Of a stretch of DNA of 64,000 nucleotides, positions 41,801 through 45,603 are shown piece after piece. The notes under the pieces are model-generated. The model was not told the DNA's origin. It saw only the letters and a program-made list of their open reading frames with translations, and ran no database searches. The stretch's first letter is position 1; each line of letters begins with the position of its first letter. The translations under genes and the position numbers were made by a program. Source of the DNA: Candidatus Latescibacterota bacterium (GTDB lineage: Bacteria; Latescibacterota; UBA2968); assembly GCA_965205975.1 (NCBI GenBank), contig OZ242195.1:4576001-4640000 (forward strand), read 5' to 3'.

Positions 41801-42146
41801 GTCCTATGACCTGGTAGAGATTGTAGAGGAAAGCGAGGATCAGACGGTTATGGCGTTTATCTGTCAGGATGGCAAGACCGTAGAAGTGAAACTGATTGGG
41901 GCAGATGTCAGTTTTAAAAGTCCGGATTTTGATGGAAATGGTGTGGTCGGGATCGCGGATTTTTTGCTATTTGTCAACCACTTTGGTCTGTCGGAGGGGG
42001 ATGCGGGTTTTGACGCAAAATACGATCTGGATGGCAATGGCATAGTGGGGATAAGCGATTTTCTGATTTTTGTAGAGGGATTTGGCAAGCCGGTGAGCGG
42101 AAAACCAGTGGCTCTCCGAAATGGGAGCGAAAAATTGGGGTCGTGA
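38859..42146 (+). CDS. Chondroitin ABC lyase-like polysaccharide lyase (PL8) with C-terminal dockerin/EF-hand-like module (start may be 38880)
   Basis: LNFTGWR, DQGWADGS, GFHHRGIYANAY, GGRFP, GWDWSMWPGTT; C-terminal DFDGNGVVGIADF repeat. Confidence 0.87.
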   Translation: MMKVQEDMMNLRRWIIIFAGGVIGLVNAAMAQNTPWRYDFEALSGAYRADAGSQVSLSTRRYKWGAQSLKWEWQNNGWLVFTDPAPGRSDALTGFRAWVYNEEALDEKLIFAFGTESELATNNPRYQFEFGLNFTGWRTMWIHFEEDARNSAYRGAADGRVTAFEIRASNSGTVYLDLMELVERIHHRRSADAQVPFVNANIADRTREYRWRRNRLPGPLLSRITNGERLAFETIAARYEAWVFGNRVKDDQREPVRIRLNELEDYIRRGYSNLADYEIRREDDRIIGNPLFAARSPYTPSFQSVFQGVLLRLVLDYRLNGNEEAKDRVIDLFDYLHDQGWADGSGIGALHHEFLRIAGYAHAVYLMRDILGDTQRLERELASLKWYSMFGELYEQTWDPGTNADFLRSVAMYRLLCILMMDDSPEKVANMRRYVVWLNNALSIAPGWLDTIKPDFVGFHHRGIYANAYAPHAFHVASVLVYLLHDTPFAVADDKRNNLKQALLTARVMANTYDISTAIGGRFPLNTTVTDDLLPAYMYMALGYPAVDAELSGAFMQLWKPKSQLLIEGLFEQASAGILYLHTPGAAQMMADFAEAGHLPAAPPSGHWTLPYGALSIHRRGDWMVSMKGWSKYVWDYESSNSGENQLGRYLSYGSMLIYSSGDPVGREASGIVRDGWDWSMWPGTTVIRLSHAQLKHEGRDRNFSDETFVGGVNMGGKNGVFALKLHDTRFNTSFRAVKTVFCFDDVLVCLGSGIENDDGGPATVTPLFQAAISEDRPTEVNGERVGAIPYMFAGTAGQRTWLMDSRGNGYVIPDGGDLRVQRQVQAPGDFGYDSGGTGTFELAYLDHGPMPRGASYHYAVLVQGSPDRVSAFANAPQYDVWQQDRYAHIVNHVGMKMTGYALFDRGARPTGGPIVSVSLPSLVMTHEVGNGLLVSVADPDFGWSWEIQTPHRQDGSLIVNQASEPRKVEVTVRGKWCLDQSYDLVEIVEESEDQTVMAFICQDGKTVEVKLIGADVSFKSPDFDGNGVVGIADFLLFVNHFGLSEGDAGFDAKYDLDGNGIVGISDFLIFVEGFGKPVSGKPVALRNGSEKLGS

Positions 42147-42163: not shown

Positions 42164-42197
42164 AAAAAAGCCGCCACACAATGTGGCGGCTTTTTTT
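42164..42197. terminator. Bidirectional terminator
   Basis: A6 GCCGCCACA/TGTGGCGGC T7. Confidence 0.9.
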
Positions 42198-42474
42198 ATT
42201 CCTTAGAATGCGATTTGTCCCAGATGGGTTTTACTTTTTCGATGACTTCAGCATCGGTCGGGCTGGATGCGACGATGTTCGTAAATTCTTCAGCTTCAAC
42301 TCCGAGTTCCTCCAGGAACTTTCTGTCAGCTGGTCACGGATAGACGTAGTCACCGATGCAGCCTCGCAATTTGGCGCGGGCTTTATCTGTAATGCGCGGG
42401 AGCCAGGGCATGTCGCCCATGTAAAGCTGACGGCTGCGCGGTCTAAAATCAACAGCGGAACTGAGTTTGTCCAT
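42196..42474 (-). CDS. DUF5069-like protein, probable selenoprotein (UGA codon 47)
   Basis: GAAGGAGG RBS; MDKLSSAVDFRPRSRQLYMGDMPWLPRITDKARAKLRGCIGDYVYP-U-PADRKFLEELGVEAEEFTNIVASSPTDAEVIEKVKPIWDKSHSKE*; SECIS-like hairpin. Confidence 0.8.
42297..42333 (-). promoter_or_regulatory. Candidate bacterial SECIS element
   Basis: Immediately 3' of UGA: lower stem CAGCU/AGUUG, upper stem AGUUCC/GGAACU, loop UGGA at +20 to +23. Confidence 0.65.
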
Positions 42475-42572
42475 TGATTCCTCCTTCAGGTATAATGGCT
42501 TTTACATGTCATAACATAGTGATTTTGCCAGTGAATAGCAAGTTAGAAAGTGGGGCCGCCGGTGGAATAAGA

Positions 42573-43652
42573 TCATATAAATTCTCGCAGATTGATTTGC
42601 TTCATACCCTCTTTAATATATTCTAAACTCTCACGATTTGATAAATCCAGTATGGGATGCTCAAAACCAATTTTCTCCGCCAAAATACTTGCTACTTCTT
42701 TAGTCCAGTGGGTCATACTCATTTGAACAATATTGCCATTTATGGCTTCAGCCATTTGGACAATACGACTGCGTTCACCAATTCTATCCACTAAAATAAT
42801 TGTCGACATGTAATGTGTCTGTCTGCCCAATTCTATCTCTCTTTCAAACCTCGATACTTTGTCCAAAGATATCTCTGTATTCCCCGGCCCAATAAAACCA
42901 ATGTCGAATCTTACACCAACGCCTGGTTCGTATAGAAGGGTGGCATCACTCTCTCGTTTTGTCCCTCGGTCAGATAACCAGAAAACTTTGTTGGTCTCAT
43001 CAGTATTTTGTCGATCAATTTTTCGAAAGCCCAATAATGAGAGAAGAGAACCCAATATAAGCTTTTCAAACAACTTGCCATACATTGATTTTTCGGAACC
43101 TCTAATTGCTAATGTTTGAGTGCCAATAGCAGCAAAAAGATAGAGAATGAATGGCCAATCCACCTTGCATTCCACGTCCTGGATTTTCAAAATACCTTCG
43201 AGTTCTCCATAGTCAATTTTACATTTATCCGTAGATTGTTTAAGTGACTCCTCAAGCGCGTTGAGGTAATTATCAAATTCATTATCCCTATTTCTCAATA
43301 CATTCTGGATACTTTTTCCTGTTAGACCGATACACCATTGCAAAAAAAGTTTTCTCTCATTTGGTATTTTTGATCTTAGTTCGGTTTTTACAATCTCCGG
43401 GATCTTATCGACAAAATTCTCAATATCCTGACCAGACCTGAGAAAAGTCACAAATAGTGCTGCATTTGAAAGCGTCAATCTTCTCCGGGTCAACCCCTCG
43501 GTTAAAGAACGGATATTCCCACCGCACAGGACAGAGGTCACAACTTCTACAACGATATCCTCACCAATCCTGTCAATTACTTCAACACCTCGATACCTTG
43601 CCAGAGATTCACCAATACGAGGGATATTTTGCGATATTGTCTCATAAAACAT
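42573..43652 (-). CDS. Type II restriction endonuclease, CfrBI-like
   Basis: GGNIRSLTE.LTRRR, IRGSEKSMYGKLFEK, RESDATL..RFDIGFIG.GNTEISLDK; AT-rich; downstream of MTase. Confidence 0.78.
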   Translation of the reverse strand: MFYETISQNIPRIGESLARYRGVEVIDRIGEDIVVEVVTSVLCGGNIRSLTEGLTRRRLTLSNAALFVTFLRSGQDIENFVDKIPEIVKTELRSKIPNERKLFLQWCIGLTGKSIQNVLRNRDNEFDNYLNALEESLKQSTDKCKIDYGELEGILKIQDVECKVDWPFILYLFAAIGTQTLAIRGSEKSMYGKLFEKLILGSLLSLLGFRKIDRQNTDETNKVFWLSDRGTKRESDATLLYEPGVGVRFDIGFIGPGNTEISLDKVSRFEREIELGRQTHYMSTIILVDRIGERSRIVQMAEAINGNIVQMSMTHWTKEVASILAEKIGFEHPILDLSNRESLEYIKEGMKQINLREFI

Positions 43653-43666
43653 TGGTTTCTCCGGTT

Positions 43667-44857
43667 CTAAAATTCAATATAGTGTTTGATGGGTGCGACT
43701 GGTTCACAGTTTATCCAATTCACCTCTTCAACTTCCTGCCGCAACCAGCTCTCAATATTCTTCTTAATTTCATTAACATAGTCTTCATTGATTTCAAATA
43801 ACACAAATCTTCTATTGAGTTTGGAGGCAGCTTGCCCAACTGTGCCAATGCCCGCAAAGGGATCGAGAATGACATCATCCTTAAACGAATAGTACCGAAT
43901 CACTTTCTCAGCAAGCTCTAAGGGGAATATTGCTGGATGTTTTTTGCTGTGAGCAGGATGAATTTTCCAGATATTGGTTACTTCATACCCATCATCAATT
44001 CGAGATTCTTTAACTCGTTTTTGATCTGGATGTTTTCTGATATGCCAATCAATCAATTTATCCGTGCTCTTCCGATAGACCAAAATATATTCTGTTATAG
44101 GGACAGATTTGTATTGCAACGGATTCCTGTCAGCCGAAAATCTTCTGCCTCGTCCGGTTGCCCAACCAGCACCTTCCGGTTTCACCCATATTATATCATC
44201 GATAAACTCAAATCCTTCTTCAATAAAAATTCTATGAATATCAAAAGGCACTGCTATTCTCTTAGAAGATTCGTTTCGACTTGCTCTGCGAATCAACACA
44301 GGCGCTATGTTTATGACAAAAAACCGTCCTTCATTTAGAACCCGATGACACTGATGTATGATTTTTCTCATTTTGAGTAAGTATTCGTCGTATTGAATGT
44401 AATCCGAATATTCAGGCCGAGCATTATAGTAAGGAGGAGATGTGAAGACGAGATCAACCGATTCAGATGGTGTCTCCGAAAGTAGTTCTTCACTATCTCC
44501 CAAACCAACCGAATTCCTCAGATTTGAAATTTTAGGTACGCCAGCTTTCTTTCTTTTTTTCGTTTTACCGTTTGTGCGTCCGAGCAATCTTGCTTCTAAG
44601 ACCTCCTTTTGAGTTGTCTTTGGTTCTTGTATCAAACTCGTATATGCATCAATTACTATCTCACCTATCTTATTGTTATCTTTACCCTTTAAGGGCACTC
44701 GCCAGAGATGGTATCGGTCATCTACTTCTGGCAGTCCAAACTCTATTGCCTTGTTAAGATCGATATTTTGCAGATAATTAGTGGAAATTTGTTTCGCATC
44801 CTCAACATTTTTCACGCGATATTTCCGCTGATCGTAAACGGTTATTTTTTTCCCCAT
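43667..44857 (-). CDS. N4-cytosine DNA methyltransferase (beta class)
   Basis: DLVFTSPPY precedes HPAIFP and [18 protein letters not shown] before MGKK. Confidence 0.9.
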
Positions 44858-45033
44858 AACATCTCCAATCATTCTACGAGCACAAATTAAGGAATGTTTT
44901 TTAGATATAGTCAATTTACCGAGGAAAACAAGGATTTTTTGCACTTTGCTATACTTTGAACAAGCTGTGTACAACTTCTCAAGAAGTTCATTTGGAGGAG
45001 GTAATGGATCGCATTATTCAACTTTATGACAAT

Positions 45034-45603
45034 CTATTTTACGGTGTATGTACTCAGTGTTGTGTCGCCGTATTTTTTTTGTCGAGAGAGGGTGAAGTTG
45101 GAAAAGGGTTTGGGGAGTGTTGTTTGAGAGGCGTGTTGGACGAGGATGCGGGCGTTGGGCGCGAGTATCGGCGTTGTTGCGAGGCGGGTGAGTATGGCGC
45201 AGGACATGGGTTGTCCGTCTAATTGCTGGTTATAGGGGGGGTCGAGGTAGATGATGTCGAATAGGGCATTTGAATGTGCGAGTTGAGGCAGGAGTTTTTG
45301 CGCGGGTCGCGCATAAAGCTGGATGCGGTCGTTGAGATGCCAATTGTCTATAAGCTGTGCGATGAAGCGGTTGCAGCGGCGGTCGGGCTCATTGATGACC
45401 ACCTGCGCACCGCGGCTACAGGCTTCGAAGCCGATTTGACCAGAGCAGGAGAAGAGGTCGAGGAAATATTTGCCGCAGAGGATTTCGCCGAGGGAAGAGA
45501 ATACAGCTTTTTTGACAAAGTCGGATGTGACGCGGGCATTGCCGTATTTTTTGTTGTTAAAGGGGATGCGGCGACCCTTAAATTCGCCAGCGATGATGCG
45601 CAT
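45034..45603 (-). CDS. rsmD: 16S rRNA m2G966 methyltransferase RsmD-like
   Basis: MRIIAGEFKGRRI, LDLFSCSG, DIIYLDPPY, KKYGDT. Confidence 0.88.
   Translation of the reverse strand: MRIIAGEFKGRRIPFNNKKYGNARVTSDFVKKAVFSSLGEILCGKYFLDLFSCSGQIGFEACSRGAQVVINEPDRRCNRFIAQLIDNWHLNDRIQLYARPAQKLLPQLAHSNALFDIIYLDPPYNQQLDGQPMSCAILTRLATTPILAPNARILVQHASQTTLPKPFSNFTLSRQKKYGDTTLSTYTVK

Follow-up and report, generated by a model that had tools for sequence, protein, structure and literature searches.

A short DUF5069 gene of Latescibacterota with a conserved in-frame UGA is a probable selenoprotein gene

Bacterial selenoprotein genes that are decoded by SelB on an intragenic SECIS element, for which the formate dehydrogenases of E. 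coli are the prototype, provide the nearest described mechanism for the locus considered here. For the chemistry of the putative product, the nearest analogues are the monothiol glutaredoxins and 1-Cys peroxiredoxins, redox proteins that operate with a single Cys or Sec. Like them, the predicted protein would present one reactive residue, followed by proline, at the start of a helix and no resolving Cys; unlike them, it is modeled as an all-helical fold unrelated to thioredoxin, and its redox role is putative. The closest structure is 3OMD, an uncharacterized protein of Leptospirillum rubarum in which the Cys of a Y-x-Y-N-C-P-L-D motif aligns with the predicted Sec. Compared with long forms of the 3OMD type, the protein described here lacks the C-terminal ~50 residues, and Sec would replace Cys. 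Set against the catalogued selenoprotein families, the domain family concerned, DUF5069 (PF16798), is distinguished by having neither a CxxU/UxxC motif nor a thioredoxin fold.

The gene lies in a stretch of 64,000 nucleotides (hereafter the window) from a Candidatus Latescibacterota genome, which is represented by a single 5.56 Mb contig and is 98% complete. The features of the locus are as follows.

42196..42474, minus strand: probable selenoprotein gene of the short DUF5069 (PF16798) type, 92 codons, with Sec as residue 47 (profile, comparative and fold-match evidence)
42480..42487, minus strand: Shine-Dalgarno-like GAAGGAGG, 5 nt ahead of the ATG at 42474
42334..42336, minus strand: in-frame UGA, codon 47, at the conserved Cys column of the family (Y-x-Y-P-U-P-A-D)
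42305..42320, minus strand: putative SECIS upper stem-loop, 6-bp stem, UGGA loop at 42314-42311, 19 nt after the UGA
42291..42332, minus strand: whole two-tier hairpin from folding, the lower tier predicted here and variable in relatives
42164..42196, both strands: intrinsic-terminator-like hairpin (consensus match only), shared with the convergent gene for a PL8-type polysaccharide lyase
42556..45042, minus strand: type II restriction-modification cassette (CfrBI-like endonuclease and N6/N4 methylase), 39% GC, given for context

A first-pass annotation made from the letters of the window had proposed a hidden selenoprotein gene at this position, and its landmarks were all reproduced: the ribosome-binding site, the ATG at 42474, the TGA of codon 47 at 42336-42334, and 45 sense codons leading to a TAA at 42198-42196. 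The TAA runs, as proposed, into a hairpin that is called terminator-like on both strands, the convergent lyase gene ending at 42146; such sites numbered 6 in the scan against 2.3 expected. The gene is indeed missing from the table-11 list of open reading frames of 70 aa or more. Orthologues are also preceded by purine-rich, RBS-like stretches, and no promoter rose above chance (5 sites against 3.9 expected). Contigs from four metatranscriptome runs in four studies span the gene at ~95% identity, and three bridge the UGA; the runs were picked because they contain the gene, and the contigs are uninformative on strand, level and transcript ends. Among the matches listed, none carries an altered letter at 42334-42336. 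The RNA runs with similar sequence are mostly sponge metagenomes.

Read through the UGA, the protein scores 61.2 bits against PF16798 (gathering cut-off 27) over profile positions 4-77 of 133. It thus falls short of the full 133-position domain and belongs to a short subfamily whose members run to 81-94 aa and end at a stop of their own. An AlphaFold model built from 118 sequences (pLDDT 87.8) places helices at residues 25-37, 48-57, 61-69 and 74-89, with no strand of three or more residues and no beta-alpha-beta thioredoxin fold; in this model residue 47 lies at the start of helix 2. The model superposes on 3OMD with Z 12.6 and rmsd 2.2 over 85 residues, the next match having Z 4.2, and Foldseek returns 3OMD with probability 1.00 and TM 0.77, the next E-value being 2.4. 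The fold searches gave no match beyond 3OMD, which does not in itself make the fold unique. The resemblance of both halves to DUF5069, put forward in the first-pass annotation, is borne out by the profile score and by a 3OMD-like fold that continues past the UGA. NCBIfam 20.0 has no model for the window protein or for five homologues, the ESM Atlas returned only DUF5069 clusters with scores below 0.9, and a tandem homologue searched with its DUF5069 part skipped returned nothing.

The position of the UGA is the first line of evidence for recoding. An alignment of 202 DUF5069 domain rows, drawn from 180 proteins, shows a residue at the UGA column in 185 of them: 142 C, 20 S, 5 W, 5 D and the rest other. 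Cys is thus the main residue of homologues at this position, and it is absent from 43 of the 185, about a quarter. A search of 168 genomes of the Latescibacterota phylum with a profile of the short subfamily (E<=1e-18) found an orthologue in 119, all within the class of the window; 104 have an internal TGA and 15 have no stop. Where the codon was read (69 of the 119), every TGA lay at the Cys column (59/59) and the other 10 were TGC or TGT. An overlapping set, the best 80 of 123 GTDB loci, comprises 63 TGA and 17 Cys forms. TGA forms occur in three families and more, and also in Poribacteria. The original alignment of the UGA with the Cys of YPCP therefore stands, and a TGA common to ~100 genomes is neither a strain-specific nonsense change nor a sequencing error. 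No relative was found in the viral contigs or plasmids searched.

The frame past the UGA is under coding constraint, judged by its pattern of substitution. Not one stop occurs in 2046 codons after the UGA in TGA rows, and codons 59-80 have a pN/pS of 0.17, compared with 0.035 for the stretch that precedes the UGA (62 rows, L135 being excluded for a 3-base insertion; 252 pairs of <20% divergence, whose members are kin and not independent). DUF5069 paralogues of two and three domains are common in relatives. For example, the genome of the window encodes a two-domain tandem form (G000:C1:598752-599606, plus strand) with the motif Cys in its second domain only and no UGA. A three-domain paralogue elsewhere (L056; G060:C1, ~2155900) carries a TGA in frame where Gly is otherwise conserved; Sec was considered there and rejected, since this TGA is off the Cys column and a nonsense change or error is more likely.

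A second line of evidence is the hairpin that follows the UGA. The bacterial SECIS model, as set out in section 5 of PMC13188914, has a 3-9 nt loop with G in its first two positions, 16-37 nt from the UGA, on a stem of 4-16 bp with MFE <= -7.5. The hairpin lies within all of these limits, with a 4-nt UGGA loop, a distance of 19 nt, 6 bp and -14.2 kcal/mol, the last being the folding energy of the two-tier structure; the G-containing apical loop had been placed at about 20 nt. Its stability is close to that of shuffled sequences (z -0.7 to -1.6 in four windows), so that support for the element rests on conservation. Codons 53-56 each use one codon in 62/62 TGA rows and vary in Cys rows, whereas codons for other invariant residues (e.g., R27, D30, K31, F64 and D74) vary synonymously within the TGA rows. 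The 5-bp upper stem is unbroken in 62/62 TGA rows against 1/17 Cys rows, and that one Cys row lacks the loop G. Among 50 distinct rows, 99% of stem cells are paired, compared with 10-69% for slid-partner controls. Four of the six stem pairs never vary and are thus uninformative on pairing; at the closing pair, 52 rows have G-C and 10 have C-G, a compensatory change that is probably one event in one clade. Of 13 further TGA forms in the family designated f3, nine have the same 12-mer core, three keep the stem through U-G and one has a rearranged loop. As judged across these alignments, then, the hairpin is synonymously frozen in TGA forms and decays in Cys forms. The two-tier hairpin of the first-pass annotation folds as described and its upper tier is conserved; its lower tier varies between relatives.

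The genome also encodes what SelB-dependent decoding calls for, since selA, selB, selC and selD were all found in it: selA (494 bits) with selB (388 bits) adjoining, and selD (371 bits), which has an in-frame TGA of its own, directly ahead of a tRNA-Sec gene (selC; 70 bits, UCA anticodon). Among the TGA genomes, 102 of 104 have selA, the two misses being 80% and 81% complete. However, selA also occurs in 12/15 Cys-form genomes and 131/168 genomes overall, so that the match between TGA and selA is a matter of consistency and does not discriminate. Hairpins of the same geometry follow 42 of 25190 open-flank TGAs in the genome, and these 42 include the DUF5069 gene, selD and two redoxin-like UxxC candidates. 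The latter, redoxin/peroxiredoxin-like frames at G000:C1:3427023 (minus strand), which is directly upstream of selD-selC, and C1:1533907 (minus strand), are probably selenoproteins of known families, as we presume.

Together, the complete Sec machinery, the Cys column and the presence of the TGA in ~100 genomes support a stand-alone DUF5069 selenoprotein, and with a high degree of confidence we consider the 92-residue protein to be made by recoding of UGA to Sec. Translation would start at the ATG at 42474; at the UGA, Sec-tRNA(Sec) would be brought in by SelB docked on the hairpin whose UGGA loop begins 19 nt further on; and the resulting chain of 92 residues would fold into four helices, its only selenocysteine lying where helix 2 begins. 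The gene itself would be a stand-alone housekeeping unit, outside any selenium operon. Within the order to which the window belongs it is usually solitary, separated by 58-273 bp from an rsmD-like gene that precedes it, with a convergent gene on its other side; in the strain of the window the 2.5-kb restriction-modification cassette is inserted between the rsmD-like and DUF5069 genes. The same cassette is present in two (L059, L064) of the 17 closest loci (L057-L073).

Selenocysteine generally sits at reactive positions, and the UGA accordingly marks the likely active residue of an otherwise uncharacterized domain. The residues that are near-invariant in the family are R27, D30, K31, R33, A34, C/U47, D50 and D74, which may form a shared pocket around residue 47. 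Cys residues are sparse: among 63 Sec forms, 24 have none besides the Sec, 24 have C71, 15 have C39 and none has both, so that no resolving Cys is conserved. The motif is U-P/G-A-D with no conserved second Cys, and not CxxU, UxxC or UxxS/T. C39 had been singled out as a second Cys eight residues upstream of the UGA; it is present and is not conserved in the family, position 39 being T, K or R outside the genus of the window. We rejected C39 as a resolving Cys, because it occurs in only 15/63 Sec forms, all close kin; a residue so confined to the genus does not belong to any redox motif of the family.

The reading we favor is that Sec47 serves as the lone selenol of a redox centre, within a helical fold other than that of thioredoxin, and to it we assign roughly even chances. 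A small substrate, bound by R27, D30, K31, R33, D50 and D74, would oxidize or modify Sec47 and, since no resolving Cys is conserved, re-reduction would fall to an external partner: a small thiol, an NAD(P)H flavoreductase or a glutaredoxin/thioredoxin system. A redox role would be in keeping with section 7 of PMC13188914, where most uncharacterized selenoproteins are held likely to be redox in function.

Gene neighborhoods provide a hint of NAD(P)H dependence. Of 58 genomes that encode an FNR-type reductase, 40 have its gene immediately downstream; these loci span four genera and include both Sec and Cys forms, and since all belong to one family they may reflect one ancestral event. The reductase was not found in the genome or genus of the window (0/20, E<=1e-40). 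Three Poribacteria loci have a gene for a Grx-thioredoxin-reductase fusion 18-22 bp upstream, and in two Cys homologues (P0107, P0198) a NuoF-like FMN-binding protein has DUF5069 joined to its N-terminus. A DUF5069 form with an extension at the N-terminus is also found unfused (P0046, P0151, P0169, P0171, P0179). Other fusions, to cupin, dienelactone hydrolase, AI-2E and methyltransferase domains, are not redox and count against such a role, as does the lack of Cys at the UGA column in about a quarter of the family domains. Most loci have unrelated neighbors, and 80 loci of long-form Cys homologues gave synteny with housekeeping genes only and no functional partner. A ~350-aa protein is encoded directly upstream of, and often overlapping, the DUF5069 gene in 19 of the loci L057-L136 and in 15/20 f3 loci (located at L124:2871-3992 and in f3 loci L217-L236). 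It has no match in Pfam, NCBIfam or the PDB, and a 31%-identical homologue is encoded elsewhere in the genome of the window.

The same recoding could serve a different chemistry. Sec47 may be a covalent nucleophile or group carrier, for acyl, alkyl or sulfane sulfur groups, within a small enzyme or scavenger whose Arg/Lys/Asp cluster binds an anionic substrate. This is the foremost of the alternatives, and we regard it as unlikely, if worth entertaining. It would suit a single Sec or Cys with no resolving partner (recall the 24/63 Sec forms without any Cys) and the near-invariant charged residues R27, D30, K31, R33, D50 and D74, as well as the DUF5069 fusions to cupin and hydrolase domains. 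Against it, the model matches no known enzyme fold, with 3OMD alone above background, and no genes of a substrate pathway lie nearby. Less likely again is that the protein is a chaperone or sensor in which Sec47, with D30, D50 and D74, binds Cu, Hg, Zn or Fe: acidic residues are conserved near Sec in the sequence, and the catalogue of PMC13188914 includes metal-related selenoproteins, but there is no second conserved Cys or His, and no metal-resistance or transport genes were recognized among the conserved neighbors. A function outside redox chemistry, nucleophile or carrier activity and metal binding seems improbable.

Readings of the UGA as something other than Sec fare considerably worse. 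Trp or Gly could be inserted by a reassigned code, or Cys by suppression, and five database proteins do have W at the position (P0003-P0006, P0012). Yet TGA is an ordinary stop here, closing 690 of the 1748 open frames that reach at least 400 codons, as it would not under tables 4 or 25; the sole tRNA with a UCA anticodon in the genome is tRNA-Sec; W24 is TGG in 62/62 rows; and natural homologues have Cys at the position, not Trp. The W entries seem best explained by gene calls with the wrong table, and we think another amino acid very improbable. That the UGA is a true stop, ending a pseudogene, a misread gene or a 46-residue peptide, can be set aside almost entirely, for although 12/180 public proteins end exactly one residue before the column (P0023, P0030, P0032, P0038, P0043, P0044, P0053, P0086, P0094, P0121, P0134 and P0176), the same TGA recurs in 104 genomes, three families and more, and Poribacteria, frame and protein sequence are conserved beyond it, and the DUF5069 match and 3OMD fold extend past it. 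Both the shortened and the W-reading public entries are probably mis-calls of TGA genes.

With Sec47 taken as a selenocysteine, the family provides an illustration of exchange between Sec and Cys. A tree built from the proteins of 75 distinct rows among the 80 (83 columns with the U/C column masked, midpoint root, direction by parsimony) needs five Sec/Cys changes, and its well-supported branches force at least four; for instance, a supported clade of 42 rows contains 40 Sec forms and two Cys forms. In the genus of the window, two genomes (G011, G018) have TGC and proteins 94-96% identical to that of the window. Each has one stem-breaking change, and selA, selC and selD are kept in both, which suggests recent reversion from Sec to Cys without loss of the machinery. 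A further Cys form (L054 in G059; TGT) has an intact stem and a loop without G, in what looks, from its sequence, like a SECIS relic; in that genome, 86% complete, selA, selD and tRNA-Sec were not found above the cut-off.

A broader proposal can be framed more tentatively, as one we find plausible but would not yet back over its competitors: DUF5069 may be an unrecognized all-helical class of single-thiol or single-selenol redox proteins with no relation to thioredoxin, for which NAD(P)H flavoreductases provide the recycling, the short form being a core selenoprotein of one Latescibacterota class and Poribacteria that has undergone at least four Sec/Cys switches, often with the Sec machinery kept.

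The recoding mechanism is textbook; what is new, apparently, is DUF5069 as a selenoprotein family. Table 1 of PMC13188914 (2026), which covers 119 families and subfamilies, has no DUF5069 or PF16798 row. Neither PF16798 nor a motif YPUP or YPUG occurs in the four supplements of PMC12013277, and '5069' appears there within accession numbers among the matches listed. 'DUF' does not occur in the available main text of PMC13326102, which presents BSepDB with 111 previously reported families. A full-text literature search, with most subscription journals outside its scope, gave no match to DUF5069 or PF16798. A query pairing Latescibacter with selenocysteine led to PMC8318568, which in the part available does not concern this gene, and papers matching 3OMD were unrelated by title among the matches listed. 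The family is thus apparently missing from the published catalogue, at a time when new bacterial selenoprotein families appear regularly, nine of them in PMC12013277 alone.

If the reading holds, the bacterial selenoproteome gains a family present in ~100 genomes of the phylum, and one that is mis-called in public catalogues, where its members are cut at the UGA or read as Trp. Why Sec is retained or lost is called unresolved in section 8 of PMC13188914, and the near-identical Sec/Cys pairs with decaying SECIS elements offer a natural series with which that question may be approached. DUF5069 already has a crystal structure, and its function could be tested with ordinary Cys homologues.
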